From positions 284,890,001-284,954,000 of the forward strand of contig CM097883.1 in the NCBI GenBank assembly GCA_044892505.1: a DNA stretch of 64,000 nucleotides, in the 5' to 3' direction. A program made the translations under genes and the position numbers. This stretch comes from Schmidtea nova. Its lineage: Eukaryota. Below the pieces are notes generated by a model, which had not been told where the DNA came from, ran no database searches, and worked only from the letters and a program-made list of their open reading frames with translations. Below are positions 1 through 43,183 of the stretch, piece by piece. Numbering within the stretch: the first letter of the stretch is position 1; each line of letters begins with the position of its first letter.

Positions 1-1
1 T

Positions 2-151: not shown

Positions 152-1235
152 AATAGGCAGTTATGTGGAGCATGAGTCATCGCAGAACAAAGTAAATGAC
201 GCCACCCCCCCGGGGGGGTGAGAAAATTTTTTATGACTCATCGATGACGTCATCGATGACTCATCGATGACGTCATCGATGACTCATCCCGATGACTCAT
301 CGGCATGACTCATCGATGACGTCATCGATGACTCATTTCAAATTTGAATTTTATGACGTCATCGATGACTCATTTCAAATTCAAATTTTGAATTTGAATT
401 TCCAAAGGTCAAATAAGGTCAAACCTTCAAACAAGGGTATCATTCGAAAGGTCTTTGAGAGGTGCACACAATGGTCATACCCTCGAGGGTCTATGGTGTG
501 TCCTTAACCTTCAAAGGGTCAAAAACCTTCAGATTTTTCAAACCTTGTGTGTAATACATCATTCGAAAGGTAATACCGATGTGCACACAATGGTCATACC
601 TTCGAAGGTGTATGGTGTGTGCTCAACCTTCAAGGGGTCAAAATCCTTCAAATATTTTTAAACATTACAAGTTATATATCAAACAAAAGGTAATTGAGAT
701 TTGAGTATGATGGTCAACCCTCGAAGGTGGGTGGTCGACCCTTGAAGGGTCCAAGACTCAAAATTTTAAAAAATATATAATATATGTATCAAACAAAAGG
801 TAATTGAAGGGTGCACACAATGGTCATACCCTTAAAGGGTCCAAGGTTCAAATTTTTAAAACTATATAATATGTATATCAAACAAAAGGTAATTGTGAGA
901 TGAGTGTGTGTGTTACAATTTGCCAGACGAGTGTGTGTTACAAATCCTTATTCAAACCTTATAATATACATATCATTCGAAAGGTAATTATGGTGTGTGT
1001 GTGTTATAATTTTTTCTATTTCCTACCTGAATTACAACAAAGACATTGCAATCCATGTGCAACGAAACAAAGACTAATAAAACTTGTAATAATAATTTTT
1101 GCACACGTATCTTAGTGTTTAATAAGGATCACAGTACGCATTGAACGCGCGTGGAACGCGCGTTCTTCTCCTCTTGTTGTTTAAGACAAATAACAGTACG
1201 CATTGAACGCGCGTGGAACGCGCGTTCTTCTTCTC
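152..1235 (+). repeat. Left Polinton-type terminal inverted repeat (visible part, up to the N block)
   Basis: Reverse complement of 42119-43183 and of 53149-54225. Contains degenerate sub-repeats CACAATGGTCATACC and AACAAAAGGTAATTG, and ACGCATTGAACGCGCG units next to the N run. Confidence 0.9.
173..372. promoter_or_regulatory. Array of AP-1 (TGACTCA/TGAGTCA) and CRE (TGACGTCA) consensus sites in the TIR
   Basis: AP-1 at 173, 234, 257, 280, 293, 306, 329 and 366; CRE at 245, 268, 317 and 354. Similar arrays occur at ~42985-43165 and ~54050-54205. Confidence 0.6.
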
Positions 1236-1571
1236 NNNNNNNNNNNNNNNNNNNNNNNNNNNNNNNNNNNNNNNNNNNNNNNNNNNNNNNNNNNNNNNNN
1301 NNNNNNNNNNNNNNNNNNNNNNNNNNNNNNNNNNNNNNNNNNNNNNNNNNNNNNNNNNNNNNNNNNNNNNNNNNNNNNNNNNNNNNNNNNNNNNNNNNNN
1401 NNNNNNNNNNNNNNNNNNNNNNNNNNNNNNNNNNNNNNNNNNNNNNNNNNNNNNNNNNNNNNNNNNNNNNNNNNNNNNNNNNNNNNNNNNNNNNNTATAA
1501 AAATTCAAACAATCAAAAACTAAAATTGAAATTACTAAATTTTATTGAATATAACATTTATAAAATAACAA

Positions 1572-1988
1572 TTATGCATATCGTGCACTGTCAATTCTCC
1601 AAATTGGAGTTATAACATCTTTTGTATCGATTTTATATCCCTGAATGATTATGGTAATAAACCAATTTTCTTGATCCTTGTATTCGATAGATTGGAAAGC
1701 ATCATGGAAACGAGTTTTCCGGTTGTTGATCCATATAGTTTCCTTGCAACTTAAATTGTTATTGATTTTAAATAAAATTTTATTTAGTGCAACAACATCT
1801 TCTTTACATAGATTTGCAGCTAAATTGTCATACAATGACTTTGTTAATTTCACTGGATACGACAAACGAAACGGTATTTCTTGTACCAAGAAATAAATTT
1901 TGTAATCGTAATACATTTGCACTGGTTTCACTTCATTATTGATTTTTCTTTCTTCACTGATATCATAAGTTGATTTACGTGCTGGCAT
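1572..1988 (-). CDS. Foldback-arm hypothetical protein ORF138, left copy
   Basis: Intact 138-aa ORF with the same translation as 12800-13216. Upstream CCAAT and TATA-like motifs. A decayed homologue lies at 57289-57653. Confidence 0.7.
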   Translation of the reverse strand: MPARKSTYDISEERKINNEVKPVQMYYDYKIYFLVQEIPFRLSYPVKLTKSLYDNLAANLCKEDVVALNKILFKINNNLSCKETIWINNRKTRFHDAFQSIEYKDQENWFITIIIQGYKIDTKDVITPIWRIDSARYA

Positions 1989-2572
1989 TTTTGAAATTGT
2001 GACAATCTCTACTAAATGTCTTTGTATTTATAATGATGAGTAATACCTTTGCCCAATCAAAATGACGCATTCTAACTGCACATGTTATGCATGTCTTCAT
2101 ACATGTCTTTGTTGCAAGCATGTCGTTGTTGCAGGTATGTCTTTGTTGCATGTCTTTGTCGTGTGTTAATTATACATGTATGTTTATTTTGTTGAAACTG
2201 GTTATATAATACATGACTTTGTTGTAATTAATTGATGCATATGCATTTATTATTGAAATTGTCTTTATTTATAAAAATTACTATTAAACATAATTCATTT
2301 AAATAAAACTTATTTAAAACTTAATAAAAATTACTAGTAAACCTATTTCATTTCAAAAAAAAAACTAATTAAAAATTATTTTAAAATTATTTAAAAAATT
2401 TATTTAAAAACCGAATAAATAACTCATTAACAAAATAAAAAAAAACTGAAACAGAAAAAACTAAAATAACAATAATAAAAGATTTATTAAATAATAAAAT
2501 GTGAATACATAAAATGTGTCTACATAAAAAGAAAATACACAAATAAATAAAAACATATAACATTTATAATGT

Positions 2573-3247
2573 TTATTCTGCAATCTCTATATTTGAAAGC
2601 TTGCGATGGCATTGATCGCAATCAGGCGATTGAGGCGATTCAATACATTTGTTTTCGTCGGATTGATCCATAGCAGTCCAACAACCAAAAGATAATTGTA
2701 ATTCTGGCAATTCATCTAAATGATCAGGTGAATTATCGCAATCATGCGATTTATCGCAATCATGCGATTTATCGCAATCATGCGATTTATCCCAATCTGG
2801 CGATTTTTCATCATCCGACGCTTCGGGTGTTGAATTTGGCCATTGCTTTGGAATCTCGTCCTCCTCGTCAATTTTTTCCAATTTCTTGGAATCCATTTCA
2901 AATTGGTGGAGGGCGTTTCGTAACATCCAGACCCGATACTTCTGTATACGGTCCATACAATGGCCGCATTGGTATGCGCACAAGATGTGCTCCGCCATAT
3001 ATGGCATTTCACTGTCCCGATTAGTCAGATGATCCAGTAAGACCTGATGAATATCGATCCCAGTCAGGCATTGAATTTTGTAGGGAAAGAGCTCCGGTGC
3101 TGCATAGGTCAGCTTCGGCATCAGCATCGGATAGATTTCCTCAAGTTTACCGTAAAGTACGGAAATTAATTTCTCTAAAATGAAAAAATTATAAAAATGA
3201 AAAAATAGTAAACTTTAAAATTTACCATATTTCATTATCTCGGGCAT
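2573..3247 (-). CDS. Foldback-arm spliced protein (~207 aa), acidic with Cys/His and a (DKSHDC)x3 repeat, left copy
   Basis: 184-aa ORF 2573-3127 extended by a 51-nt GT-AG intron to an ATG at 3247; mirror image of 11541-12215. Confidence 0.6.
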
Positions 3248-3299
3248 TTTGTGATTGTGAATATAAATGATAGCAAAATGTTAATTGTATATATATATA

Positions 3300-6200
3300 C
3301 GATAGAAACACAAGGCATGTACAAAATATTACACACTGAACCAATCAGATTCGAGTATGCATAACATGTATTTATTATCGAAATATACATTGGACCAATC
3401 AGAATAGTGCATTAATATTGCAGATTTATTGCAATCATGAGTCACATGTTATTATAAAATCAACAAAGGCTTTATCTTCGATAATTTATTTTATATCGAT
3501 AATAATATTATCAACTATATTTAAATAATCCCTAGTTTTTAAACCTAATACAACTACTTTACCACTTGCAAATATACTAACACACATGTGGTTATATTTT
3601 ATATATCTCAAAGCTGGAAATATTTTCAGGTTCGTAAACACACTATTAATTTAGACTAATAATATGAATATCATCACACTGAGCAGGTAAATACATGACA
3701 AATTATCATACTATACAGATCATTACACAAATTATTTTTATACTAGAGTACAAATATATCAAAAATATATGAAATATATATATAAATGAAATATCAGAAC
3801 AAAGTATCTTTAAATACATCAAATATTATTATACTATTATGCAAACTACATACAAAATGTCATCATACTATAGTTTAATAACATAGTTTAATAACATAGA
3901 AAATCATTAAAAGTACACACAAAATATCTAAAATACATATAAATTCATCACACACACATATAAAATAACATTACATATATGAAATATTATTACACAAAAG
4001 GTTATCACATGAAAGAAATATCTACGTACTATTGAGAATCATACACACAAAATATATAGAAATTCATCACACACACACATGAAATATTATTACACAAAAG
4101 ATTATCACATGCACAAAATATTATCATACTATAATGCAAAATACACACAAAATATCATTACATGAAATATTATCACAAAGTAACGTTATATACATGAAAT
4201 ATCATCCGATACATGAAATTTCATCACAAAAAATCATCATACACACAAATTATATACAAAGTTTATCATAAATACTAGAAATACAGACAATAATAATCAT
4301 AAAAAGAAATATTATCACACTAGTGGAAATATATACACAAAAGCTTATCAGATGTACGAAATATTATTATTGTACCATAATGCAAAATACAAATAAAATG
4401 TCAAAATTAAAAGCATATACACAAAGTATTATCACATTATAGTGTAAAAACATTAGAAATACATACAAAATATATGAAATGTCATCACAAAATATCCAAG
4501 ATTCACAAAGAAAATATTAAAAATACAAACAAAAGATTATCATATTATTGTTTGATAACATAAAAATACATAGAAAATCATCAAAATACGTACAAGTATC
4601 ATTACATAGATAAACTATAATTATCACATACATGAAATATCTTCATAGAAAATATCAAAAGTACATAGAAATAAATCCTATACACAAAGGATATCATTAC
4701 ACATGTGAAATATCTTTACATACATAAAATGTCATCATGCTTTAATGCAAATACGGACAAGAAATATCTTCATGTTATAATGCAAATACACATAATATTA
4801 AAAGTTATATCATATACACACACAAAGGGTATCATACACATGAAAACTTGTCATGTTATAGTCAGTCAAATGAATGAAATATTATTATACTAGTGTAAAA
4901 TACATACATAATTTCAAAGAATGCATCATACAAAGGATATCATCACAATATATCATCATACTATAGTGCAATTACATAGATAATCATCAAAAAGATACAA
5001 AAATTAATCAAATTCACAACAATAATCATTAAAGAAATATCTACATACACAAAGAAAATCATATACACATACTTAGAAAATCATCATATACAAAATATCA
5101 AAAGTTCATTACACATACAAAATATAATCACATATATCATAAATCTATAATGTAACAGTAATAAATGTTCAAGTAATGAGCTTTTGCACATGAAAACCAT
5201 CACAAAAGATGTTATGCTTCTAGGGTTCTGATAGCAATGTTCTGTTCGCAATGTTCTGCTACTGTATAAAATTAATGAAAATTATATGAATGAAAATAAA
5301 TCTTTCAAACATTACAGTAAATTCTACTTTAAAATGAGATCGAATGCATGAAATGTCATCATACTATAGCGAAAATACATGAAAATATTCACAAAGTGAC
5401 ATTAGATACATCAAATATTATCTTACTAGTTTGATAACATTGAGAAAGAAAATATATAGAAATCATCAAAAATATACACACAAAATATTAAAAATAAGTC
5501 ATATGAAATCTCATCACAAAATACATAGATATTCATGACACACGTACAAAATATCAAAAATACAAACATACACAAAATATTATCACATTATAGTGCAACA
5601 ATATTAGAAATACATACAAAATATGAAATATATATGAAATGTCATCACAAAGTATCATTAAATACATAATATATCATCATGAAATATCATTACATACATG
5701 AAATATCATCCTTCTATAGTGCAATTACAAGAATATACCCACACAATATCAAAAATATATTGAAATTCATCAAAATACATAGAAATTCATCAAACAAGAA
5801 ATATGTACATAATAGTTGTCATTAAAAGTGTATCAGTAAATGTAATATGCTTTCACAATTAGTTTGTTACATTGATCGAAGCTCATATGATTAAGCTAAT
5901 GATTGTTATTTTAGTATATGTGTGAATAATAAACTTTTGCACATAAAAACCATCACAAAAGATGTTCTGTTACTAAAGGTTCTGCTAGCAATGGTCTGTT
6001 AGCAATGTTCTGCTACTGAATAAAATTGATGAAAATATAACAATAATGAATTATGAGTGAAAATAAATCTTTCAAACATTACAGTAGGTTCTACTTTAAA
6101 GTGAGAAAAACCAATAGATATTTTAAAAGCAATGTAGAAAATATTAATGGGTGAGAATATTAGAACAATTAATGTTGAATGAAGTTGAATTGTAACAGTA

Positions 6201-6975
6201 ATAATTAAATAAATGTTCGAGTAATAAGCTTTTGCAGATAAAAACCATCACAAAAGATGTTCTGCTACTAGTGTTCTGTTAGCAAGGTTTTGCTACTAGG
6301 GTTCTGATAGAAACGTTAGACTACTTATCATATTTCAAGTCTGAATTGTTGATATAAATCACTGTGACGCATGTTTAAAACACTTGTACTGTCATGTTAT
6401 GCATGTGTCATGCACTTGTATTGCAACTTGATTGCATTTGTATTGCAACTTGATTGCATTTGTATTGAAACTTAATTACACTTGTATTTCTTGTGTCATT
6501 CACTTGTGATATTCAAGAACATGTATATTTTCTTTCATTTTCCTTAAATATTAATCATTTTTACATAATTTAATTATTTTCAGAGTAAATTTAATACAAA
6601 ATAGTAAAGATATTGACAATTCCTGTATTTATTAAGCAATGATTTTGGATACTTTGTGATGATACAAAATGGTTGTAAAATGATAAAACATTATTTCCTC
6701 CGTAGAAGTGTATAAAACCATAAATTGATTCAAGGAAATATTCAATGGATTTGTCTAATAAGTTAAAAAAGTTGTATTTTAATCAAACTGTACATATTGA
6801 ATCATAGTTTTTAGAGTCAATTTCTTGCAAAAAACAAAGCGGATTTTCAAAATTCATGTTATAGTTCTAAATCAAACTTTAAAATTTAAAATACCACAAC
6901 GTAAAATATTTTTAAAGTACCACAACGTAATAAAAGTTGGTATATATCTATTAGAATTTTATAAGTAATTCATTT
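3300..6975. repeat. AT-rich degenerate low-complexity region of the left arm
   Basis: Recurring AAATATCATCACA and ATACATGAAATAT-like units; no credible ORF; mirrored at 7789-~11480. Confidence 0.65.
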
Positions 6976-7425
6976 GAGATAATAAATATATTACGTTAGT
7001 GGTAATTGCCAGATGTTTAAAAAACTCCAACATTAGAAAAAGTATCAAGCAAGTTAACCTTATTCCAAAAAAAAAAACATATTTATATACATGATAAGGT
7101 TTTTCTCTTCAAACTTTTGAATATTTTATAATTTCATTGGAAGATCAAAAAAAAAAAAATAAAATAAAATAAAATAAAATATGGCCTGAAATAATATATG
7201 AATTAACTCTATTATTTCGTCTCTTCATATTTTAAAATAGCCACAATATTATATATTCTCAATAGCTTTACTATAAATAATTTATTTATAAATATTCAAA
7301 ACGTTTTCCCGTTATTTACTTTATTTTTATTATTCAATAATTACTACAATAATAATCAAAAATTAAATCAGATGATATATAAATCTTATAATAAAAGTCA
7401 AAAACTCTTAAAATAATTTATTTCA

Positions 7426-7782
7426 TTAAAATTCTTTAGCTTCTCGCATTTGATTCATCAATTGTTCATTTTCAATTTTCAATTTTAGTATTTCTAAATT
7501 CTTTCTGCGAAGCTTCTGTATCATTCTTTCCTTTGATTCCCGGTAGAGATTGATCATTTTCTCTAGTTCCTCCATTCGACTCTTAATGTGAACCTTTGAA
7601 CCATTGACCTTTGGAATTTCATGACTTTTTCCTAATAAATGTAATAATATTAATAATAATTTTAGAAAAATAAGTATAATTTTACTTGAACTTTTAGAAC
7701 TTTCAGGTAGCGAACTTCCATGTACCGAGATTGATTCATTCTCTGCGTTATTATTATTATTGCTAGTTTGTTGACTGTTCAT
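7426..7782 (-). CDS. Loop gene of the foldback: ~100-aa coiled-coil protein after removal of a 54-nt in-frame intron (7632-7685)
   Basis: Only ORF in the unique 813-bp spacer 6976-7788. The apparent hydrophobic stretch coincides with gtaaaa...ttattag. C-terminal heptads LKIENEQLMNQM. Confidence 0.55.
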   Translation of the reverse strand: MNSQQTSNNNNNAENESISVHGSSLPESSKSSSKIILIFLKLLLILLHLLGKSHEIPKVNGSKVHIKSRMEELEKMINLYRESKERMIQKLRRKNLEILKLKIENEQLMNQMREAKEF

Positions 7783-7788
7783 TGTTTA

Positions 7789-10700
7789 AAATGAATTACT
7801 TATAAAATTCTAATAGATATATACCAACTTTTATTACGTTGTGGTACTTTAAAAATATTTTACGTTGTGGCATTTTAAATTTTAAAGTTTGATTTAGAAC
7901 TATAACATGAATTTTGAAAATCCGCTTTGTTTTTTGCAAGAAATTGACTCTAAAAACTATGATTCAATATGTACAGTTTGATTAAAATACAACTTTTTTA
8001 ACTTATTAGACAAATCCATTGAATATTTCCTTGAATCAATTTATGGTTTTATACACTTCTACGGAGGAAATAATGTTTTATCATTTTACAACCATTTTGT
8101 ATCATCACAAAGTATCCAAAATCATTGCTTAATAAATACAGGAATTGTCAATATCTTTACTATTTTGTATTAAATTTACTCTGAAAATAATTAAATTATG
8201 TAAAAATGATTAATATTTAAGGAAAATGAAAGAAAATATACATGTTCTTGAATATCACAAGTGAATGACACAAGAAATACAAGTGTAATTAAGTTTCAAT
8301 ACAAATGCAATCAAGTTGCAATACAAATGCAATCAAGTTGCAATACAAATGCAATCAAGTTGCAATACAAGTGCATGACACATGCATAACATGACAGTAC
8401 AAGTGTTTTAAACATGCGTCACAGTGATTTATATCAACAATTCAGACTTGAAATATGATAAGTAGTCTAACGTTTCTATCAGAACCCTAGTAGCAAAACC
8501 TTGCTAACAGAACACTAGTAGCAGAACATCTTTTGTGATGGTTTTTATCTGCAAAAGCTTATTACTCGAACATTTATTTAATTATTACTGTTACAATTCA
8601 ACTTCATTCAACATTAATTGTTCTAATATTCTCACCCATTAATATTTTCTACATTGCTTTTAAAATATCTATTGGTTTTTCTCACTTTAAAGTAGAACCT
8701 ACTGTAATGTTTGAAAGATTTATTTTCACTCATAATTCATTATTGTTATATTTTCATCAATTTTATTCAGTAGCAGAACATTGCTAACAGACCATTGCTA
8801 GCAGAACCTTTAGTAACAGAACATCTTTTGTGATGGTTTTTATGTGCAAAAGTTTATTATTCACACATATACTAAAATAACAATCATTAGCTTAATCATA
8901 TGAGCTTCGATCAATGTAACAAACTAATTGTGAAAGCATATTACATTTACTGATACACTTTTAATGACAACTATTATGTACATATTTCTTGTTTGATGAA
9001 TTTCTATGTATTTTGATGAATTTCAATATATTTTTGATATTGTGTGGGTATATTCTTGTAATTGCACTATAGAAGGATGATATTTCATGTATGTAATGAT
9101 ATTTCATGATGATATATTATGTATTTAATGATACTTTGTGATGACATTTCATATATATTTCATATTTTGTATGTATTTCTAATATTGTTGCACTATAATG
9201 TGATAATATTTTGTGTATGTTTGTATTTTTGATATTTTGTACGTGTGTCATGAATATCTATGTATTTTGTGATGAGATTTCATATGACTTATTTTTAATA
9301 TTTTGTGTGTATATTTTTGATGATTTCTATATATTTTCTTTCTCAATGTTATCAAACTAGTAAGATAATATTTGATGTATCTAATGTCACTTTGTGAATA
9401 TTTTCATGTATTTTCGCTATAGTATGATGACATTTCATGCATTCGATCTCATTTTAAAGTAGAATTTACTGTAATGTTTGAAAGATTTATTTTCATTCAT
9501 ATAATTTTCATTAATTTTATACAGTAGCAGAACATTGCGAACAGAACATTGCTATCAGAACCCTAGAAGCATAACATCTTTTGTGATGGTTTTCATGTGC
9601 AAAAGCTCATTACTTGAACATTTATTACTGTTACATTATAGATTTATGATATATGTGATTATATTTTGTATGTGTAATGAACTTTTGATATTTTGTATAT
9701 GATGATTTTCTAAGTATGTGTATATGATTTTCTTTGTGTATGTAGATATTTCTTTAATGATTATTGTTGTGAATTTGATTAATTTTTGTATCTTTTTGAT
9801 GATTATCTATGTAATTGCACTATAGTATGATGATATATTGTGATGATATCCTTTGTATGATGCATTCTTTGAAATTATGTATGTATTTTACACTAGTATG
9901 ATAATATTTCATTCATTTGACTGACTATAACATGACAACTTTTCATGTGTATGATACCCTTTGTGTGTGTATATGATATAACTTTTAATATTATGTGTAT
10001 TTGCATTATAACATGAAGATATTTCTTGTCCGTATTTGCATTAAAGCATGATGACATTTTATGTATGTAAAGATATTTCACATGTGTAATGATATCCTTT
10101 GTGTATAGGATTTATTTCTACGTACTTTTGATATTTTCTATGAAGATATTTCATGTATGTGATAATTATAGTTTATCTATGTAATGATACTTGTACGTAT
10201 TTTGATGATTTTCTACGTATTTTTATGTTATCAAACAATAATATGATAATCTTTTGTTTGTATTTTTAATATTTTCTTTGTGAATCTTGGATATTTTGTG
10301 ATGACATTTCATATATTTTGTATGTATTTCTAATGTTTTTACACTATAATGTGATAATACTTTGTGTATATGCTTTTAATTTTGACATTTTATTTGTATT
10401 TTGCATTATGGTACAATAATAATATTTCGTACATCTGATAAGCTTTTGTGTATATATTTCCACTAGTGTGATAATATTTCTTTTTATGATTATTATTGTC
10501 TGTATTTCTAGTATTTATGATAAACTTTGTATATAATTTGTGTGTATGATGATTTTTTGTGATGAAATTTCATGTATCGGATGATATTTCATGTATATAA
10601 CGTTACTTTGTGATAATATTTCATGTAATGATATTTTGTGTGTATTTTGCATTATAGTATGATAATATTTTGTGCATGTGATAATCTTTTGTGTAATAAT

Positions 10701-11480
10701 ATTTCATGTGTGTGTGTGTGATGAATTTCTATATATTTTGTGTGTATGATTCTCAATAGTACGTAGATATTTCTTTCATGTGATAACCTTTTGTGTAATA
10801 AAATTTCATATATGTAATGTTATTTTATATGTGTGTGTGATGAATTTATATGTATTTTAGATATTTTGTGTGTACTTTTAATGATTTTCTATGTTATTAA
10901 ACTATGTTATTAAACTATAGTATGATGACATTTTGTATGTAGTTTGCATAATAGTATAATAATATTTGATGTATTTAAAGATACTTTGTTCTGATATTTC
11001 ATTTATATATATATTTCATATATTTTTGATATATTTGTACTCTAGTATAAAAATAATTTGTGTAATGATCTGTATAGTATGATAATTTGTCATGTATTTA
11101 CCTGCTCAGTGTGATGATATTCATATTATTAGTCTAAATTAATAGTGTGTTTACGAACCTGAAAATATTTCCAGCTTTGAGATATATAAAATATAACCAC
11201 ATGTGTGTTAGTATATTTGCAAGTGGTAAAGTAGTTGTATTAGGTTTAAAAACTAGGGATTATTTAAATATAGTTGATAATATTATTATCGATATAAAAT
11301 AAATTATCGAAGATAAAGCCTTTGTTGATTTTATAATAACATGTGACTCATGATTGCAATAAATCTGCAATATTAATGCACTATTCTGATTGGTCCAATG
11401 TATATTTCGATAATAAATACATGTTATGCATACTCGAATCTGATTGGTTCAGTGTGTAATATTTTGTACATGCCTTGTGT
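7789..11480. repeat. AT-rich low-complexity region of the right arm (inverted copy of 3300-6975)
   Basis: Reverse complement of the left arm with small differences, e.g. three versus two copies of the unit CAATACAAATGCAATCAAGTTG near 8295-8365. Confidence 0.7.
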
Positions 11481-11540
11481 TTCTATCGTATATATATATA
11501 CAATTAACATTTTGCTATCATTTATATTCACAATCACAAA

Positions 11541-12215
11541 ATGCCCGAGATAATGAAATATGGTAAATTTTAAAGTTTACTATTTTTTCATTTTTATAAT
11601 TTTTTCATTTTAGAGAAATTAATTTCCGTACTTTACGGTAAACTTGAGGAAATCTATCCGATGCTGATGCCGAAGCTGACCTATGCAGCACCGGAGCTCT
11701 TTCCCTACAAAATTCAATGCCTGACTGGGATCGATATTCATCAGGTCTTACTGGATCATCTGGCTAATCGGGACAGTGAAATGCCATATATGGCGGAGCA
11801 CATCTTGTGCGCATACCAATGCGGCCATTGTATGGACCGTATACAGAAGTATCGGGTCTGGATGTTACGAAACGCCCTCCACCAATTTGAAATGGATTCC
11901 AAGAAATTGGAAAAAATTGACGAGGAGGACGAGATTCCAAAGCAATGGCCAAATTCAACACCCGAAGCGTCGGATGATGAAAAATCGCCAGATTGGGATA
12001 AATCGCATGATTGCGATAAATCGCATGATTGCGATAAATCGCATGATTGCGATAATTCACCTGATCATTTAGATGAATTGCCAGAATTACAATTATCTTT
12101 TGGTTGTTGGACTGCTATGGATCAATCCGACGAAAACAAATGTATTGAATCGCCTCAATCGCCTGATTGCGATCAATGCCATCGCAAGCTTTCAAATATA
12201 GAGATTGCAGAATAA
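11541..12215 (+). CDS. Foldback-arm spliced protein (~207 aa), right copy
   Basis: Exon 1 at 11541-11562 (MPEIMKY), intron 11563-11613 (gt...ttttag, 51 nt), exon 2 in frame with the 184-aa ORF. Differs from the left copy at HLANR versus HLTNR. Confidence 0.6.
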
Positions 12216-12799
12216 ACATTATAAATGTTATATGTTTTTATTTATTTGTGTATTTTCTTTTTATGTAGACACATTTTATGTATTCACATTTTATTATTTA
12301 ATAAATCTTTTATTATTGTTATTTTAGTTTTTTCTGTTTCAGTTTTTTTTTATTTTGTTAATGAGTTATTTATTCGGTTTTTAAATAAATTTTTTAAATA
12401 ATTTTAAAATAATTTTTAATTAGTTTTTTTTTTGAAATGAAATAGGTTTACTAGTAATTTTTATTAAGTTTTAAATAAGTTTTATTTAAATGAATTATGT
12501 TTAATAGTAATTTTTATAAATAAAGACAATTTCAATAATAAATGCATATGCATCAATTAATTACAACAAAGTCATGTATTATATAACCAGTTTCAACAAA
12601 ATAAACATACATGTATAATTAACACACGACAAAGACATGCAACAAAGACATACCTGCAACAACGACATGCTTGCAACAAAGACATGTATGAAGACATGCA
12701 TAACATGTGCAGTTAGAATGCGTCATTTTGATTGGGCAAAGGTATTACTCATCATTATAAATACAAAGACATTTAGTAGAGATTGTCACAATTTCAAAA

Positions 12800-13216
12800 A
12801 TGCCAGCACGTAAATCAACTTATGATATCAGTGAAGAAAGAAAAATCAATAATGAAGTGAAACCAGTGCAAATGTATTACGATTACAAAATTTATTTCTT
12901 GGTACAAGAAATACCGTTTCGTTTGTCGTATCCAGTGAAATTAACAAAGTCATTGTATGACAATTTAGCTGCAAATCTATGTAAAGAAGATGTTGTTGCA
13001 CTAAATAAAATTTTATTTAAAATCAATAACAATTTAAGTTGCAAGGAAACTATATGGATCAACAACCGGAAAACTCGTTTCCATGATGCCTTCCAATCTA
13101 TCGAATACAAGGATCAAGAAAATTGGTTTATTACCATAATCATTCAGGGATATAAAATCGATACAAAAGATGTTATAACTCCAATTTGGAGAATTGACAG
13201 TGCACGATATGCATAA
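12800..13216 (+). CDS. Foldback-arm hypothetical protein ORF138, right copy
   Basis: Intact ORF with the same translation as 1572-1988. Confidence 0.7.
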   Translation: MPARKSTYDISEERKINNEVKPVQMYYDYKIYFLVQEIPFRLSYPVKLTKSLYDNLAANLCKEDVVALNKILFKINNNLSCKETIWINNRKTRFHDAFQSIEYKDQENWFITIIIQGYKIDTKDVITPIWRIDSARYA

Positions 13217-13800
13217 TTGTTATTTTATAAATGTTATATTCTGCTGGGATTATGGGTGGGTTTTAAGTAATTCAGGTAAATCATTAATCATTACTGAACG
13301 GCTAGTGATGAGTACTTATACTAGGGATTCCACGCCCATAACCATACATAACATGACTACTACACGCGTATGCCCTTGACTATTCCCTACTAGTCAAGTT
13401 GGTACTGCATACGGTGGTGGAAAAATGATGGGCAGGTGAGCTTTGTTGCCAAAACTACTCCCCATTTATCTTCCCGCGGGTCCTTGCTGCCGATAGAAGG
13501 TCTTACGCATTTACATTCTATGGATGTTCGTTTCTTACTGCATTTTATACTACATATCCTTATGATCTATCATACGCTTTTCCCAATGACTTTCCTTAAT
13601 GAATCTACAATGTAATTAATCAGTCCCTGCGTAGAAACGGTCGGTTTGAGAAAATTACGGATGCGATTTTCTATTTCGATGATTTCAGTGTTGTTAATTT
13701 AATTTTATTTAGTAACCTCGCCCGATGAGAGACAAAATTTACACAGAAAATACTTTTATTAAAATACTAAAACAGGTTGTTATTTTACATGGATGTTTTC

Positions 13801-14385
13801 CTAAGCGAATTCCAGACTAATCTCCTGAATCAACTCCGCTTCGGTTAAGGAGTTCAAGTGGTGGATTTGTTCGTCCAGGCGCTTCGCAAATTCTCGGCGA
13901 CGACGACGCTGTCGCGATCCCATTCGATGTTTTCGAAGCTGTTGGTTTATGACCGGCGCTGACGCTATTGTTCTCGGGGGATCACTGAGAAAAATAGGCA
14001 AATCTTCCGTTGCGAGAGTGGGGGTCATGATGATTCCCTCTTCCGTCCCGCAAGCGACATCTTGGTGAGTGCATTGTATCCAGCGCTGAGCCGTGATCGG
14101 CCGGATTAGCGCTCGCAATTCGGAGTCGATGTAACTTCTTGTTACTGCGTTCAGGCAATTTCGTAGTTCTCTCTGGACAGCGTCTAGTTCCAATTTAGTT
14201 GCGGCCAGTGCTTCCTGCATTCGCTCAAGTTTTTTCGACTGGTCCTTCATTTGTTCGGGCGAGAACCACTTCGCTCTCAATTCATCATTGGCGACCGTGA
14301 GTCGCTTGATCTGTCGCTGCTGGTCCCTCAACTTCCTCTCTTGGATTTGTCCCATGATTTTCTTGGAATTTTCTGAAGTCGGCAT
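13801..14385 (-). CDS. LTR-encoded coiled-coil protein (194 aa) with an Arg-rich NLS-like motif
   Basis: ATG in a CAACATG context, AATAAA downstream, motif RQRRRRREF; same translation at 39014-39598. Confidence 0.6.
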   Translation of the reverse strand: MPTSENSKKIMGQIQERKLRDQQRQIKRLTVANDELRAKWFSPEQMKDQSKKLERMQEALAATKLELDAVQRELRNCLNAVTRSYIDSELRALIRPITAQRWIQCTHQDVACGTEEGIIMTPTLATEDLPIFLSDPPRTIASAPVINQQLRKHRMGSRQRRRRREFAKRLDEQIHHLNSLTEAELIQEISLEFA

Positions 14386-14714
14386 GTTGTCTGAATATTA
14401 TAACCATAAATTCGCTGGAGGACCTATCAACAATGATATTTTATTTAGTCTATTATTTACTATCATTAAACGAGATGCATACTAATGTTTTTAATTATTA
14501 AGTTTGTTGCAAAATTAATTAACTATCTAATTATTGAAGGCTCAAAAATTTTATTGAACTAATTTGAGATTATTAAATGAAATTCCTAATGACTATAACA
14601 ACTACAATACTGGATATTAATAAATCTACATTACGACACTATTAACAAAATGAGACACTTCAGAAATTTTTTAAAACATTTATTAAATTCAAAAATAGGT
14701 GGCCATTTATTCAA

Positions 14715-15191
14715 TTATCCATCTTCGGTCATTTTTCCCCGATACGAAAATATCGATTTAATTTGCAAATTTGTGTGGATCCCTGGGCTATTGGACGAGG
14801 CTTGCTGGAAGCGGATTCTCTCAGCTTCTCGAAGGGGTCGTATGGCTGTATTGAACTTGAACCCCAATTCCTTGAAGGTAGAGGCTGGAATGAACCCCCA
14901 ATAAATGACACATTTCGGGAATCCACCTTTGTCCAACATCAGGATGAACCAGGCGGCGTGCCATGATTCGAATTCCTCGTCTGGAATGATTGGCCAACTA
15001 GCGCATCCCCGGTACCATACGTGATGCCGTGGATGGTCCCATACTGTAAATGGACAGGCGGTTTCAAGCTCTCGGCGCCATGCCCACATTTTTTGATGGA
15101 TTTGTTGTAAAATTTCGAAAGGAGCCGGCTTTAATGGGCTAACTCGGGCTCGTTCTTGTCGCTTTTTGATAGTGTATCTATGTTTAGTCAT
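14715..15191 (-). CDS. LTR-encoded hypothetical protein (158 aa, Trp-rich)
   Basis: GC-richer than its flanks, AATAAA directly after the stop; same translation at 39928-40404. Confidence 0.55.
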   Translation of the reverse strand: MTKHRYTIKKRQERARVSPLKPAPFEILQQIHQKMWAWRRELETACPFTVWDHPRHHVWYRGCASWPIIPDEEFESWHAAWFILMLDKGGFPKCVIYWGFIPASTFKELGFKFNTAIRPLREAERIRFQQASSNSPGIHTNLQIKSIFSYRGKMTEDG

Positions 15192-16786
15192 GATTCTAAA
15201 ACGATGCTACATTTTATAATAGTTACAATTTACATCAATAATTAATCATAGTAAATGTTATCTCTCATCGTGATACCCTTATTATTTGCCTTCCCCTTAG
15301 ACCTTAGCTGAAATCAAGAAAAAACTGTTGCTTGTTACGGTATACATTACTCTCGTATCTACTTAGATTTATCTGTTTACGATCAATTTTATAGTCGAAA
15401 AAAAGGGTGATTTGTCTGCTTGGATTTTTAAGATATTGATACCTCAAAACGGAAGTTCTCTCACGTCATGTATCCCTAGCTTATTCGAAAACGCTCTTTT
15501 GTATCAAATGCGGTCGACATAAATTTTCTAAGGTTTATTAGATGTTTATCTAGCAGCTGTGCTGCGGTGAGGGGGAACAATTTGTGCCTCCTCACGGTTA
15601 AAAAATTCTTTCATATCTTTAAGCTTTATCGAAAAATTATCGTCCCCTCTGTAGCTAAATTGATCGGAAAATAATTCCCCGGATTTGTTGGGTGTCCCAT
15701 GTGCAAATCTCATCCATCACTAACAAAATTATGTTTTGTTATTTATTACTTTACCGTGTGTGGAGCCCTCGAGCACCACGCCACGGACGGACACCTTGGG
15801 AACCTAAAGCTCCCAACGGCGCAAGATTAATATGCTAGGTTAAATAGTTTAAATATAACATAAATCATAATGAGACAAATAATAAATTATAATATGATAA
15901 TGACATATGAATACAGCGATATCAAATAATAAACGTAAATATACCAAAAATACCTCAATTGAATTCTGAAAATTTATTGATCAAAATCGGTCTAAACGGT
16001 GATCGTCGTCGGGGCAATGTGCAATCTAATGTAAATTTTTAGTCTGAACACAAGTCTAAATTTTTGTCTCAAACAAAGTCACAAGTCTACAATCTATATT
16101 CTAACAAAGTCTAAGTTTTTACACAGTCTAACAACGTCTCTATTCTACCAAAGTCTGATTTTATGAGAAATCTGATCAGTATTTATACTGATCAGTCGTG
16201 TCTAGACTGACCAATCAGGTTTGGCCAGTTTCATGGTGGTTTTTAATTATTGTTTTTGATTCTAATTAATTTTTATTTTTTAGATTGTATTCTTCCTTGG
16301 AGGTCCGGGTTTCAAAAACAATTATTCAATAACAAGTACTTTTATTTGGTTTTAATTATTATTATTTGTATTTTATTTGTTTTTAGATGTCTCCTGGGCC
16401 CGTTAATATCTATAAATTCATTTATTTTTATTTATAGCTTGTACTTAGTTATTCTATATTTTTACTATATTATTCCTTTCTTTTAATAAATAAATATTCC
16501 CCTTTTTACCTTATTTTTCTCTTTTTTGTTTTAATTAATCTACTTTTATTTCACTGTTCCCTCTATTTGGCTGGCCCAACATCACTCGGGGACCCCTAAA
16601 ATTGCGTCCCGCAATTAATTATACATTTACACCTATATCATCATACATAAAAATTAAGCAGATAAATGTCAATTTACATATACACAAAGAATCACATAAG
16701 GTGATAAGTTTTTATACTTAAGCACAAAGTCATATTATTGTTAATTGTACGTGGATCATACATAAAGTGAATGTAATTTATCAGTT

Positions 16787-25962: not shown

Positions 25963-25994
25963 ATTTCGTGAGCTTAGGAATTCTATGATGGGTT

Positions 25995-36725: not shown

Positions 36726-36749
36726 CTATATATCCGGATATCCCTATTG

Positions 36750-36935: not shown

Positions 36936-36937
36936 TC

Positions 36938-37628: not shown

Positions 37629-38090
37629 TTATAAATAAACTACAATTCTATCAGCTACAGAGAAATTGCACATGGGGCACTCATCACACTTATTCGCACA
37701 GTTTTTACAAAATCGAAAATGTCCGCATGGTAGAAACATTATTTGGATTTCACTGTCTTCGCATATGTAACATTGTTTATATTGTTTTGCTGCCTCGACC
37801 CCTTGCGACATCCATCGGTTATATGTTAGGTTTAACTGCTGTTCTATATGTCGGCATCTAATATTCAACTCGGCATCCTCTAATCGTGCTTTGTACCATT
37901 TATATCGCGTATTTATATCGAGTTTATTCACTTTCTCTATGATTTTTATTAACTCAGTTGTTTCCTCCGTTTGTGTCGTAGGTTCCTCATATTCGGATGC
38001 TCTTATTCGGGTTATTTTTTCGCAGACTGTCTCAAATGTATCGTTCTCGGTGTTGAAAAATTCCTCGATTTCTTTCAGTTTTTCCTCCAT
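37629..38090 (-). CDS. C-terminal RING finger protein of IAP/MDM2 type, no BIR visible (153 aa)
   Basis: CYIC...FLPCGH...CKNCA...CPMC...IVVYL at the extreme C-terminus. Lies between the PBS and gag. Confidence 0.8.
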   Translation of the reverse strand: MEEKLKEIEEFFNTENDTFETVCEKITRIRASEYEEPTTQTEETTELIKIIEKVNKLDINTRYKWYKARLEDAELNIRCRHIEQQLNLTYNRWMSQGVEAAKQYKQCYICEDSEIQIMFLPCGHFRFCKNCANKCDECPMCNFSVADRIVVYL

Positions 38091-38430
38091 TTCCTAGATA
38101 ATTTATTTAATTACTGTGTTAATATTATTCGAAAAGTAGTACTGTGTTTCGTTTCTGACAGTTTTATAGCCTAGTACTGTGTTTCGTTTCTGACAGTTTT
38201 ATAGCCTCCCCCCGTGTTTCGGTAAATTGTCGTCCCGACCTGTTATTTATGAATGCATTTGTTCAATTTATCTACTAATTTGTTTTAATTCTCTGTTTGT
38301 AATTATCTATTTCCACGCAACTCACTTTTATCTCGTTTACTCTTTCGGTTACTATTTCTACTCACAAAATTCTGATTTTAAGTTTCTCTGTTGTCATTGG
38401 GTTCACCTTTTCCGCATAAAACAAAGTTGA

Positions 38431-38448
38431 ATCCCGGCTGAGCCCCCA
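38431..38448 (-). promoter_or_regulatory. Primer-binding site complementary to the 3' end of tRNA-Pro
   Basis: TGGGGGCTCAGCCGGGAT, 16/18 identical to the MLV tRNA-Pro PBS TGGGGGCTCGTCCGGGAT, 6 nt inside the 5' LTR. Confidence 0.8.
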
Positions 38449-39013
38449 AATTTATGCTGGGATTATGGGTGGGTTTTAAGTAATTCAGGTAAATCATTAA
38501 TCATTACTGAACGGCTAGTGATGAGTACTTATACTAGGGATTCCACGCCCATAACCATACATAACATGACTACTACACGCGTATGCCCTTGACTATTCCC
38601 TACTAGTCAAGTTGGTACTGCATACGGTGGTGGAAAAATGATGGGCAGGTGAGCTTTGTTGCCAAAACTACTCCCCATTTATCTTCCCGCGGGTCCTTGC
38701 TGCCGATAGAAGGTCTTACGCATTTACATTCTATGGATGTTCGTTTCTTACTGCATTTTATACTACATATCCTTATGATCTATCATACGCTTTTCCCAAT
38801 GACTTTCCTTAATGAATCTACAATGTAATTAATCAGTCCCTGCGTAGAAACGGTCGGTTTGAGAAAATTACGGATGCGATTTTCTATTTCGATGATTTCA
38901 GTGTTGTTAATTTAATTTTATTTAGTAACCTCGCCCGATGAGAGACAAAATTTACACAGAAAATACTTTTATTAAAATACTAAAACAGGTTGTTATTTTA
39001 CATGGATGTTTTC

Positions 39014-39598
39014 CTAAGCGAATTCCAGACTAATCTCCTGAATCAACTCCGCTTCGGTTAAGGAGTTCAAGTGGTGGATTTGTTCGTCCAGGCGCTTCGC
39101 AAATTCTCGGCGACGACGACGCTGTCGCGATCCCATTCGATGTTTTCGAAGCTGTTGGTTTATGACCGGCGCTGACGCTATTGTTCTCGGGGGATCACTG
39201 AGAAAAATAGGCAAATCTTCCGTTGCGAGAGTGGGGGTCATGATGATTCCCTCTTCCGTCCCGCAAGCGACATCTTGGTGAGTGCATTGTATCCAGCGCT
39301 GAGCCGTGATCGGCCGGATTAGCGCTCGCAATTCGGAGTCGATGTAACTTCTTGTTACTGCGTTCAGGCAATTTCGTAGTTCTCTCTGGACAGCGTCTAG
39401 TTCCAATTTAGTTGCGGCCAGTGCTTCCTGCATTCGCTCAAGTTTTTTCGACTGGTCCTTCATTTGTTCGGGCGAGAACCACTTCGCTCTCAATTCATCA
39501 TTGGCGACCGTGAGTCGCTTGATCTGTCGCTGCTGGTCCCTCAACTTCCTCTCTTGGATTTGTCCCATGATTTTCTTGGAATTTTCTGAAGTCGGCAT
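39014..39598 (-). CDS. LTR-encoded 194-aa protein, second copy
   Basis: Same translation as 13801-14385. Confidence 0.6.
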   Translation of the reverse strand: MPTSENSKKIMGQIQERKLRDQQRQIKRLTVANDELRAKWFSPEQMKDQSKKLERMQEALAATKLELDAVQRELRNCLNAVTRSYIDSELRALIRPITAQRWIQCTHQDVACGTEEGIIMTPTLATEDLPIFLSDPPRTIASAPVINQQLRKHRMGSRQRRRRREFAKRLDEQIHHLNSLTEAELIQEISLEFA

Positions 39599-39927
39599 GT
39601 TGTCTGAATATTATAACCATAAATTCGCTGGAGGACCTATCAACAATGATATTTTATTTAGTCTATTATTTACTATCATTAAACGAGATGCATACTAATG
39701 TTTTTAATTATTAAGTTTGTTGCAAAATTAATTAACTATCTAATTATTGAAGGCTCAAAAATTTTATTGAACTAATTTGAGATTATTAAATGAAATTCCT
39801 AATGACTATAACAACTACAATACTGGATATTAATAAATCTACATTACGACACTATTAACAAAATGAGACACTTCAGAAATTTTTTAAAACATTTATTAAA
39901 TTCAAAAATAGGTGGCCATTTATTCAA

Positions 39928-40404
39928 TTATCCATCTTCGGTCATTTTTCCCCGATACGAAAATATCGATTTAATTTGCAAATTTGTGTGGATCCCTGGG
40001 CTATTGGACGAGGCTTGCTGGAAGCGGATTCTCTCAGCTTCTCGAAGGGGTCGTATGGCTGTATTGAACTTGAACCCCAATTCCTTGAAGGTAGAGGCTG
40101 GAATGAACCCCCAATAAATGACACATTTCGGGAATCCACCTTTGTCCAACATCAGGATGAACCAGGCGGCGTGCCATGATTCGAATTCCTCGTCTGGAAT
40201 GATTGGCCAACTAGCGCATCCCCGGTACCATACGTGATGCCGTGGATGGTCCCATACTGTAAATGGACAGGCGGTTTCAAGCTCTCGGCGCCATGCCCAC
40301 ATTTTTTGATGGATTTGTTGTAAAATTTCGAAAGGAGCCGGCTTTAATGGGCTAACTCGGGCTCGTTCTTGTCGCTTTTTGATAGTGTATCTATGTTTAG
40401 TCAT
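39928..40404 (-). CDS. LTR-encoded 158-aa protein, second copy
   Basis: Same translation as 14715-15191. Confidence 0.55.
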   Translation of the reverse strand: MTKHRYTIKKRQERARVSPLKPAPFEILQQIHQKMWAWRRELETACPFTVWDHPRHHVWYRGCASWPIIPDEEFESWHAAWFILMLDKGGFPKCVIYWGFIPASTFKELGFKFNTAIRPLREAERIRFQQASSNSPGIHTNLQIKSIFSYRGKMTEDG

Positions 40405-42118
40405 GATTCTAAAACGATGCTACATTTTATAATAGTTACAATTTACATCAATAATTAATCATAGTAAATGTTATCTCTCATCGTGATACCCTTATTATTT
40501 GCCTTCCCCTTAGACCTTAGCTGAAATCAAGAAAAAACTGTTGCTTGTTACGGTATACATTACTCTCGTATCTACTTAGATTTATCTGTTTACGATCAAT
40601 TTTATAGTCGAAAAAAAGGGTGATTTGTCTGCTTGGATTTTTAAGATATTGATACCTCAAAACGGAAGTTCTCTCACGTCATGTATCCCTAGCTTATTCG
40701 AAAACGCTCTTTTGTATCAAATGCGGTCGACATAAATTTTCTAAGGTTTATTAGATGTTTATCTAGCAGCTGTGCTGCGGTGAGGGGGAACAATTTGTGC
40801 CTCCTCACGGTTAAAAAATTCTTTCATATCTTTAAGCTTTATCGAAAAATTATCGTCCCTTCTGTAGCTAAATTGATCGGAAAATAATTCCCCGGATTTG
40901 TTGGGTGTCCCATGTGCAAATCTCATCCATCACTAACAAAATTATGTTTTGTTATTTATTACTTTACCGTGTGTGGAGCCCTCGAGCACCACGCCACGGA
41001 CGGACACCTTGGGAACCTAAAGCTCCCAACGGCGCAAGATTAATATGCTAGGTTAAATAGTTTAAATATAACATAAATCATAATGAGACAAATAATAAAT
41101 TATAATATGATAATGACATATGAATACAGCGATATCAAATAATAAACGTAAATATACCAAAAATACCTCAATTGAATTCTGAAAATTTATTGATCAAAAT
41201 CGGTCTAAACGGTGATCGTCGTCGGGGCAATGTGCAATCTAATGTAAATTTTTAGTCTGAACACAAGTCTAAATTTTTGTCTCAAACAAAGTCACAAGTC
41301 TACAATCTATATTCTAACAAAGTCTAAGTTTTTACACAGTCTAACAACGTCTCTATTCTACCAAAGTCTGTTTTTTTGAGAAATCTGATCAGTATTTATA
41401 CTGATCAGTCGTGTCTAGACTGACCAATCAGGTTTGGCCAGTTTCATGGTGGTTTTTAATTATTGTTTTTGATTCTAATTAATTTTTATTTTTTAGATTG
41501 TATTCTTCCTTGGAGGTCCGGGTTTCAAAAACAATTATTCAATAACAAGTACTTTTATTTGGTTTTAATTATTATTATTTGTATTTTATTTGTTTTTAGA
41601 TGTCTCCTGGGCCCGTTAATATCTATAAATTCATTTATTTTTATTTATAGCTTGTACTTAGTTATTCTATATTTTTACTATATTATTCCTTTCTTTTAAT
41701 AAATAAATATTCCCCTTTTTACCTTATTTTTCTCTTTTTTGTTTTAATTAATCTACTTTTATTTCACTGTTCCCTCTATTTGGCTGGCCCAACAATTCAA
41801 TAAAATTTAGTAATTTCAATTTTAGTTTTTGATTGTTTGAATTTTTATANNNNNNNNNNNNNNNNNNNNNNNNNNNNNNNNNNNNNNNNNNNNNNNNNNN
41901 NNNNNNNNNNNNNNNNNNNNNNNNNNNNNNNNNNNNNNNNNNNNNNNNNNNNNNNNNNNNNNNNNNNNNNNNNNNNNNNNNNNNNNNNNNNNNNNNNNNN
42001 NNNNNNNNNNNNNNNNNNNNNNNNNNNNNNNNNNNNNNNNNNNNNNNNNNNNNNNNNNNNNNNNNNNNNNNNNNNNNNNNNNNNNNNNNNNNNNNNNNNN
42101 NNNNNNNNNNNNNNNNNN

Positions 42119-43183
42119 GAGAAGAAGAACGCGCGTTCCACGCGCGTTCAATGCGTACTGTTATTTGTCTTAAACAACAAGAGGAGAAGAACGCGCGTTG
42201 CACGCGCGTTCAATGCGTACTGTGATCCTTATTAAACACTAAGATACGTGTGCAAAAATTATTATTACAAGTTTTATTAGTCTTTGTTTCGTTGCACATG
42301 GATTGCAATGTCTTTGTTGTAATTCAGGTAGGAAATAGAAAAAATTATAACACACACACACACACCATAATTACCTTTCGAATGATATGTATATTATAAG
42401 GTTTGAATAAGGATTTGTAACACACACTCGTCTGGCAAATTGTAACACACACACTCATCTCACAATTACCTTTTGTTTGATATACATATTATATAGTTTT
42501 AAAAATTTGAACCTTGGACCCTTTAAGGGTATGACCATTGTGTGCACCCTTCAATTACCTTTTGTTTGATACATATATTATATAGTTTTTAAAATTTTGA
42601 GTCTTGGACCCTTCAAGGGTCGACCACCCACCTTCGAGGGTTGACCATCATACTCAAATCTCAATTACCTTTTGTTTGATATATAACTTGTAATGTTTAA
42701 AAATATTTGAAGGATTTTGACCCCTTGAAGGTTGAGCACACACCATACACCTTCGAAGGTATGACCATTGTGTGCACATCGGTATTACCTTTCGAATGAT
42801 GTATTACACACAAGGTTTGAAAAATCTGAAGGTTTTTGACCCTTTGAAGGTTAAGGACACACCATAGACCCTCGAGGGTATGACCATTGTGTGCACCTCT
42901 CAAAGACCTTTCGAATGATACCCTTGTTTGAAGGTTTGACCTTATTTGACCTTTGGAAATTCAAATTCAAAATTTGAATTTGAAATGAGTCATCGATGAC
43001 GTCATAAAATTCAAATTTGAAATGAGTCATCGATGACGTCATCGATGAGTCATACCGATGAGTCATCGGGATGGGTCATCGATGAGTCATCGATGAGTCA
43101 TAAAAAATTTTTCTCACCCCCCCGGGGGGGTGACGTCATTTCCTTTGTTCTGCGATGACTCATGCTCCACATAACTGCCTACT
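42119..43183 (-). repeat. Right TIR of the foldback element
   Basis: Reverse complement of 152-1235; ends CTGCCTACT, followed by TSD AACACA. Confidence 0.9.

Follow-up and report, generated by a model that had tools for sequence, protein, structure and literature searches.

What kind of mobile element consists almost wholly of one inverted repeat, carries no enzyme gene of its own and is inserted between clean target-site duplications? This question is raised by a unit in a 64,000-nucleotide stretch of the Schmidtea nova genome (GenBank assembly GCA_044892505.1, contig CM097883.1, positions 284,890,001 to 284,954,000, forward strand), hereafter the window, to which all coordinates without a locus name refer. 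The unit, hereafter the foldback, has ends of Polinton type, and it is probably a helper-dependent copy-back satellite, that is, a multi-copy, enzyme-less, palindromic derivative of Polintons whose arms would be corrected against each other in a fold-back intermediate. Without the retrotransposon with long terminal repeats (LTRs) that is nested in its right arm, it measures 14,475 bp (by subtraction), with arms of 6,824 and 6,838 bp and a loop of 813 bp, the arms (each ~6.8 kb) making up ~94% of the element. Self-comparison of the window gave inverted alignments of 1547-6975 with 7789-13241 (99.4%, 5,453 columns) and of 154-1235 with 42119-43181 (97%), the 260 and 269 bases of the two terminal inverted repeats (TIRs) that are N being left out, in agreement with a sequence-only reading of the same stretch that had described one inverted repeat with ~6.8-kb arms and a loop at 6976-7788. 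The 6-bp target-site duplication (TSD) noticed in that reading is AACACA at 146-151 and 43184-43189, and the three small proteins to which it had limited the coding capacity were found again as open reading frames (ORFs) of 138 aa (two copies), 184 aa (two copies) and 118 aa (one copy); the arm additionally bears the 3' remnant of a Polinton TBP-like gene, which had gone unmentioned. The features of the unit are the following.

146-151: left TSD, AACACA, 6 bp
152-1495, forward strand: left Polinton-type TIR, starting with AATAGG here and with AGTAGG in other copies
233-390: block of ATCGAT, TGACGTCA and TGA(C/G)TCA repeats in the left TIR
439-729: 119-bp repeats in the left TIR
1236-1495: stretch of N in the left TIR
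1572-1988, reverse strand: ORF138, a Polinton left-end gene, left-arm copy
2573-3127, reverse strand: ORF184, a Polinton left-end gene, left-arm copy
3420-3655, reverse strand: 3' remnant of the Polinton TBP-like gene; similarity to the Polinton stops near 3655
3655-6975, forward strand: AT-rich core of degenerate repeats, left arm
6976-7788: loop, 813 bp
7426-7782, reverse strand: ORF118 in the loop, its ATG six bases inside the arm end
7789-13241, reverse strand: inner right arm, mirror of 1547-6975
11661-12215, forward strand: right-arm ORF184
12800-13216, forward strand: right-arm ORF138
41799-43183, reverse strand: outer right arm and right TIR, ending in ...CCTACT, with N at 41850-42118
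43184-43189: right TSD, AACACA, 6 bp

Read inward, the right terminus of the unit is AGTAGG, from which the left terminus of the window copy departs by one change (AATAGG at 152). The tip of the TIR (152-420) contains four TGACGTCA and eight TGA(C/G)TCA motifs amid palindromic ATCGAT repeats, motifs which we take to be CRE- and AP-1-like.

The foldback sits inside the integrase gene of another Polinton, whose parts in the window are given below.

1-151, forward strand: integrase gene of the host Polinton, upstream of the insertion
43190-54225, forward strand: right part of the host Polinton, with the end of the integrase including a chromodomain, capsid-like ORFs and the right TIR
48477-52403, forward strand: family-B polymerase of the host Polinton
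54226-54231: TSD of the host Polinton, CTTATT

The left end of this Polinton lies 5.75 kb before the window (locus L021; L numbers denote stretches of the same genome), and its right end is at 54225. On L087, a copy that lacks the interruption, the two flanks of the foldback align one directly after the other; the integrase site of this copy carries a single AACACA and represents the empty site. The sequence-only reading had spoken of a neighbouring Polinton with nearly identical TIRs; the kinship of the ends stands, with TIR bodies only 2-7 of ~736 positions apart, whereas mere adjacency does not, as the foldback interrupts that Polinton's integrase gene.

The window copy belongs to a large family. 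In a DNA search for the arm-loop-arm arrangement, all 40 scored loci (the best 40 of 2,192 candidates) showed 96-100% identity and the same loop boundaries. An exact 26-mer of the loop occurs 243 times in the genome and an exact 29-mer of the inner arm 501 times, a loop-to-arm ratio of ~1:2, and the reversed controls occur 0 times. The 19 best other copies were fetched for the work on TSDs and arms; for 15 of them the fetched range included both ends, at a spacing of 13.1-16.4 kb, and each of these 15 complete copies is flanked by an exact 6-bp TSD different from those of the others. Loop length ranged from 808 to 829 bp in copies where the main alignment reached the loop. With at most one mismatch, a 28-mer of the inner arm end has 3,101 occurrences, and 58 of the first 100 listed were paired head-to-head less than 1 kb apart, which leads to an estimate of about 900 or more two-armed cores by extrapolation from the first 87 Mb of one contig. 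Because there are at least 243 loop copies and each of the 15 complete copies has its own TSD, a single local duplication without other TSD-flanked copies is refuted, and the other TIR-bounded copies with different 6-bp TSDs that the sequence-only reading had proposed to look for do exist. One-sided deletions often break at most ~70 bp from the loop base (6908-6975) with both ends and the TSD kept (L071, L072, L074, L075, L041, L155 and L156), as expected of unstable chromosomal palindromes.

Each arm is composed of 3.5 kb of Polinton left end and a 3.3-kb AT-rich core. Positions 152-3669 of the window match the left end of the host, and the Polinton-derived part (152 to ~3655) comprises the TIR, ORF138, ORF184 and the 3' part of the TBP-like gene. 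The TIR body showed zero fixed differences between 28 foldback and 12 Polinton TIRs, in a comparison that covered the first two of five segments, and substitutions relative to the host climb from <1% (TIR) through 2-5% (genes and spacer) to 12% (TBP remnant). Neither the core (3655-6975) nor the loop has a long match in the host Polinton or in the gene-complete copies checked. ATPase and capsid-like genes are absent from the foldbacks of both families recognised here (A and B), and no pPolB, integrase or transposase ORF was detected in 152-13241 or 41795-43183 of the window; symmetric copies have neither pPolB nor integrase, except for an integrase in L127 and a pPolB-like candidate match in L179. 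Because the foldback lacks these genes yet retains helper-type ends, it is taken to depend on Polintons in trans, which upholds the earlier proposal of a helper-dependent Polinton parasite. The foldback is not an autonomous Polinton and qualifies as a non-autonomous Polinton derivative.

Family-B foldbacks have a core ~70-80% like that of family A and a related loop ORF, and they carry a RING-finger ORF (PF13920; L029:5327-5773) in both arms in place of ORF138 and ORF184; a source element of this RING ORF was not found. Five of the 19 loop-selected copies (L015, L017, L029, L031 and L033) combine a family-A loop with family-B outer arms on both sides. Three end types were observed, family A being seen with types 1 and 3 and family B with types 1 and 2, both sides always alike, and gene-complete Polintons exist for each of the three. 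The core plus loop was also considered as a free-standing transposon inserted into a Polinton, a view that gained no support: 8 of 10 loci with a lone inner-arm motif show an adjoining Polinton end, the lone-motif loci L076 and L079 are partial, and among the first 100 matches listed there was no free core flanked by a TSD of its own.

The two arms of a copy resemble each other much more than they resemble other copies. In 13 copies whose arms were cut out by anchors (which missed 7 of 20), the median difference between own arms was 0.18% versus ~1.0% between copies, 24 of 26 arms were closest to their own partner, and 124 of 126 doubleton alleles were confined to the two arms of one copy. Over 19 copies, alleles common to several copies gave 1,095 two-armed and 69 one-armed calls, and private alleles were two-armed in 239 cases (118 of which came from one divergent copy) and one-armed in 154. 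Larger changes are mirrored as well, including deletions of 159-1,126 alignment columns and a 615-bp TA-flanked MITE (a miniature transposable element with inverted repeats) that both arms of L011 carry and that no other copy has at this site, with a junction that occurs exactly twice in the genome. The junction of a 1.1-kb deletion has 38 occurrences and is found in both arms at 14 of 24 loci and in one arm at 10. In six gene-complete Polintons, all seven TIR doubletons likewise lay within a copy; the TIRs of gene-complete Polintons differ more within a copy (0.5-1.8%). Arm equalisation is thus strong and incomplete.

With regard to its timing, the differences within three nested repeat pairs in the window follow the succession of insertions, in which the host Polinton came first, the foldback second and the LTR element third: the host TIRs differ at 9 of 768 positions, the foldback arms at 8 of 5,422 and the LTRs at 3 of 3,340 (computed as 4 of 3,343, one mismatch in three flanking bases being set aside). 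The outer parts of the arms, now 41 kb apart, show 2 differences in 884 positions outside the terminal repeat block, and the LTR element remains one-sided and unmirrored. In 26 copies, isolated mismatches amounted to 0.15-0.28% per kb by distance from the loop, with no rise in identity towards the loop beyond this range. Mutation spectra of two-armed and one-armed variants did not differ (p 0.14). The data fit equalisation at the birth of a copy, with arms that begin identical and diverge with age, and they would be compatible with conversion in the chromosome as well.

Mirrored forms have also arisen de novo. One is L127 (L127 and L128, G000:C1:6524689-6542382), which is 17.7 kb long, has the TSD AGTGAT and lacks pPolB; in it, a family-2 Polinton has had its left 7.9 kb mirrored. 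Its arms differ from each other at 29 of 7,001 positions and, over the mapped region, by 5-9% from other copies of family 2. Its junction, unique in the genome, contains a 31-nt filler with part of the terminal motif, which is absent at that place in three other copies. A family-A foldback (L145 and L146, G000:C1:113671379-113688577) has been refolded around a new centre into a 17.2-kb element with TSD GTTTTG, and its 8.5-kb arms hold an additional piece of the ORF184/TBP-like region. L151 (G000:C1:3326708-3333567; 6.9 kb, matching TSD) is a short form that looks copy-back-like: it begins as the left part of a Polinton, which extends to where the minor-capsid-like gene starts, and it ends in an inverted TIR with ORF138. 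L145 and L151 thus add two refoldings that are independent of L127. From L127, L145 and L151 it follows that mirrored products arise repeatedly and integrate with a clean TSD, and template switching during strand-displacement synthesis would be the process that produces them.

Element size was compared in a non-random sample, picked by loop motif or end spacing, of elements that were fetched to both ends and whose TSDs agreed at 5 or 6 bases. The 31 elements at least 80% symmetric measured 12,582-17,694 bp, and 12 of 13 gene-complete copies measured 16,476-17,973 bp (the other, a deleted copy, 13,650 bp). Symmetry of at least 80% was reached by none of the 12 loci chosen because their ends lie close together; these loci proved to be one-sided deletions, partial Polintons or unmatched ends. 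A size floor near 73% of helper length is offered as a lead, and a floor of this kind recalls the lower packaging limit of adenovirus. Mavericks have been argued to have a constrained size of ~17 kb (PMC8097293).

On these grounds, the following course may be proposed for the copy-back satellite. A foldback would originate when a strand-displacing polymerase switches template and copies back, an event that L127 appears to preserve in fossil form. Afterwards, the pPolB of a helper would start protein-primed synthesis at the AGTAG ends and displace a strand. Folded up, this strand could form a ~7-kb stem closed by a 0.8-kb loop, an extreme case of the single-stranded racket that has been proposed as an intermediate of Polinton replication (PMC4196379). 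In the fold-back duplex, mismatches, deletions and insertions might be corrected patchwise, or one arm might be copied from the other, before integration, so that arm differences would mostly, not always, be removed in this form, and the helper integrase would then insert the duplex. Both the equalisation of the arms and the mirrored Polinton that arose de novo match this fold-back idea. A lower size limit at about three quarters of helper length would point to packaging. A bolder version, which we put forward tentatively and consider somewhat doubtful, is that the foldbacks form an old heritable lineage of capsid-sized snap-back Polinton satellites with their own core and near-perfect palindrome, which would replicate as single-stranded DNA (ssDNA) hairpins, be packaged in helper particles and repeatedly switch helpers, acquiring a new terminus at one side and mirroring it to the other; if so, the single-stranded racket through which Polintons would replicate would have left a genomic record in the arms of the snap-back lineage.

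Some of these properties could also result from processes without any snap-back step. In a foldback of the Galileo kind, the helper integrase alone would move double-stranded DNA, TIRs would be extended by break repair, and arms would be converted within the chromosome. Extension of one TIR by repair from the other has been proposed for Galileo (PMC3573991), and copies with unequal arms (one of them a recombinant with unmatched TSDs), frequent one-sided deletions near the loop base and a two-armed MITE for which no parent was found make it clear that rearrangement of these palindromes in the chromosome does take place. We regard the Galileo-like course as rather unlikely, given the nested clock in insertion order, the lack of a steep gradient from the loop, the persistence of one-sided insertions and deletions, the terminal-motif filler at the L127 junction, and lengths that stay near helper size instead of shrinking as in ordinary non-autonomous elements. 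It seems much less probable that the host keeps foldbacks as a brake on Polintons, with spread by the copy-back route and with titration of helper polymerase or capsids, or double-stranded RNA from the arms directed at the left-end genes of the helper, as the means: the TIR, ORF138 and ORF184 sequences of the arms are within a few percent of the helper, and both arms aim a putative promoter region at the loop, where the ORF118 ATG is six bases inside the arm end, whereas the copies are dispersed and young and show ordinary rates of breakage, and their number, in the hundreds, fits selfish spread.

It is hardly credible that the structure arose in assembly, from collapsed repeats or from reads folding back, or that it is just one local inverted duplication. 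Sequencing is known to produce long palindromes as artefacts, and the Logan contigs listed, which cover the loop, do not span an arm-loop joint or the junction at 43183 when 31 letters on each side are required. However, the loop boundaries are constant at 40 of 40 loci, the TSDs are exact and distinct, the site in L087 is empty, one arm harbours a TSD-flanked LTR element, the two arms differ by real substitutions and indels, and the loop sequence was found in four public sequencing runs of one study (no RNA run being among the matches listed).

Several observations weigh against the copy-back satellite as set out here. Counts of one-arm variants are overdispersed and uncorrelated with two-arm private variants; the overdispersion fits a spread of ages and fits long conversion tracts as well. 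Of the 10 loci with the 1.1-kb deletion in one arm, seven have been truncated or interrupted; the other three are complete copies whose arms are unequal, namely L053 and L161, with matching TSDs, and L175, the unmatched TSDs of which mean that chromosomal recombination between copies does occur; one-armed shared alleles are also present in L005, L019, L023 and L009. For the L011 MITE, a parent with the insertion in one arm did not turn up, and conversion in place explains the two-armed state equally well. Moreover, neither the core nor the loop nor the RING gene was found as an integral part of any gene-complete Polinton, the capsid-like ORFs of the helpers are putative, being named from motifs and Polinton gene order, and the size floor rests on picked loci with variable microsatellite length. 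The hairpin, extrachromosomal and encapsidated forms of the element are predictions from assembled sequence. A stricter view, in which the birth of every copy would involve complete copying of one arm, was abandoned as too strong in view of L053 and L161.

As for the helpers, the host integrase matched rve and the ATPase of the family-2 Polinton matched Pox_A32, both above the cut-off. A 1,308-aa ORF of the host shows DINNLYG, KLLNNSLYGK and AGDTDS, which we take to be family-B polymerase motifs; it had no polymerase match in Pfam, PHROG or the PDB. The capsid-candidate ORFs of the helpers had no match in Pfam or PHROG, and none of the helper ORFs scanned matched an adenain-like protease. A TBP-like gene of 155 aa (L021:7521-7988, and in families 2 and 3) is present in these Polintons (PF00352, E 2e-14). 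The integrase frame is split at the same point in L021 (9709-9755), L087 and L123 by a short AT-rich GT...AG stretch, which on its sequence is probably an intron; introns have been reported absent from vertebrate Mavericks (PMC8097293). The Polinton load of the genome is very high, with 1,322 (type 1), 6,128 (type 2) and 266 (type 3) exact terminal 26-27-mers, and a fourth end type occurs in L025 and L111. Typing of the source end by differences between left and right TIRs was dropped, as the Polintons showed no side-specific variants. Foldbacks and Polintons are often nested in each other (window 1-151/43184, L107, L115, L171 and L027).

The remaining large feature of the window is the LTR element, a later passenger in one arm that lies outside the foldback proper.

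13242-41794, reverse strand: nested Burro-like Ty3/gypsy LTR element, 28,553 bp, right arm only
13242-16581 and 38455-41794: its LTRs, TG...CA, 3,340 bp, with the 4-bp TSD ATTC

It encodes gag, a mononegavirus-type fusion protein, PR, RT, RH, IN, ankyrin, MATH/TRAF and RING domains, and its size of 28.6 kb and domain set resemble the Burro LTR retrotransposons of planarians, which are described with MATH/TRAF, ankyrin and a mononegavirus-type fusion protein between gag and pol (PMC6431247). The element is young, as its LTRs show only the three differences given above, and has two ORFs within each LTR and several accessory ORFs. Elsewhere in the window, an older broken Polinton end in reverse orientation (55313-58707) is split at ~56051-57269 by a small inverted-repeat element with a helix-turn-helix ORF, and a second, degenerate Ty3/gypsy element lies at 60571-63851.

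Among the small proteins, ORF138 (47 synonymous to 43 non-synonymous changes) and the N-terminal part of ORF184 (29 to 37) show a synonymous excess in non-autonomous loci, against ~19% synonymous sites. ORF138 alleles are interleaved with those of the Polintons (3 of 21 copies lying no farther from a Polinton than from another foldback, with 7 shared polymorphisms), and hence the synonymous signal may be imported from helpers. ORF138 has three unnamed homologues; it had no sequence match in the PDB and no Foldseek match in the PDB or BFVD, with Atlas scores of at most 0.87, and a role as ssDNA-binding protein was not confirmed, the models being too poor (pLDDT 34 and 58). ORF118 as a selected satellite gene was rejected, with 8 synonymous versus 26 non-synonymous changes in family A (p 0.35); its loop matches comprise 26 intact and 12 broken or partial forms, and no homologue was found.

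The replication mode of Polintons in animals and their formation of particles are still argued from gene content, and the foldback family turns both questions into direct tests: hairpin DNA would be a purifiable marker of strand displacement, a size rule would be a test of packaging, and arm differences might serve as an insertion clock like LTR pairs. The range of copy-back defective genomes would also be extended from infections by RNA viruses to DNA elements that are inherited. A survey that takes polymerase or integrase matches as its starting point, as described for Polintons (PMC8097293; bioRxiv 10.1101/2023.08.22.554363), would miss the foldbacks, in spite of their hundreds of copies here.

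With Polintons/Mavericks the foldbacks share AGTAG-type termini, the 6-bp TSD and a length near 17 kb (PMC8097293; bioRxiv 10.1101/2023.08.22.554363), and their TIR and left-end genes are taken from a resident Polinton. Published TIRs of Polintons/Mavericks span 46-1,447 bp in vertebrates or 100-1,500 bp (same sources), whereas the foldback has 6.8-kb arms around a 0.8-kb loop and not 0.1-1.5-kb TIRs around a unique interior. Butterfly Polintons are described with gene-bearing TIRs of ~2 kb and with polB-less Polinton-related insertions carrying LINE cargo, so that genes duplicated inside extended TIRs and mobile polB-less derivatives are common to both, whereas the butterfly elements keep a large unique interior; the words "palindrom" and "foldback" do not occur in that preprint (bioRxiv 10.1101/2025.02.07.637071). 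Expansion of inverted repeats is said to have been reported for Polintons (PMC3573991, where two of the three references cited are, by title, not about Polintons), and no description of near-wholly palindromic Polinton derivatives was found in the literature searched, the scope of which excluded subscription papers, the original Polinton descriptions, Repbase and supplements.

Galileo and other foldback transposons likewise have long, internally repetitive inverted arms, extended-TIR copies and chimeric copies, and Galileo belongs to a P-superfamily transposase system with arms on the ~1-kb scale (PMC3573991). The present foldbacks differ in their Polinton ends, 6-bp TSD, helper-like size, equalisation over 7 kb and lack of a transposase ORF. 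TSDs of the Galileo/Foldback or MULE type are 7-11 bp long. For adenovirus, Daniell as well as Steinwaerder and Lieber (1999) reportedly described defective genomes, and mini-genomes that derive from inverted repeats and have the left end in duplicate. These adenovirus forms are protein-primed strand-displacement replicons of the order left end, inverted repeat, spacer, inverted repeat, left end and are replicated with a helper; unlike the foldbacks, they are laboratory products without integrase-mediated insertion or heritable families. Copy-back/snap-back defective viral genomes carry one genome end at both termini, are self-complementary over nearly their full length and need the polymerase of a helper, and they are known mainly from negative-strand RNA viruses, in which they are short-lived and unintegrated (PMC13506859). 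In the foldback, too, one genome end is inversely duplicated at both termini and the replication genes are lost, whereas it is made of DNA, integrated with a TSD, inherited and furnished with its own long-lived core; in structure it corresponds to a copy-back/snap-back defective genome, and in function it may resemble one.

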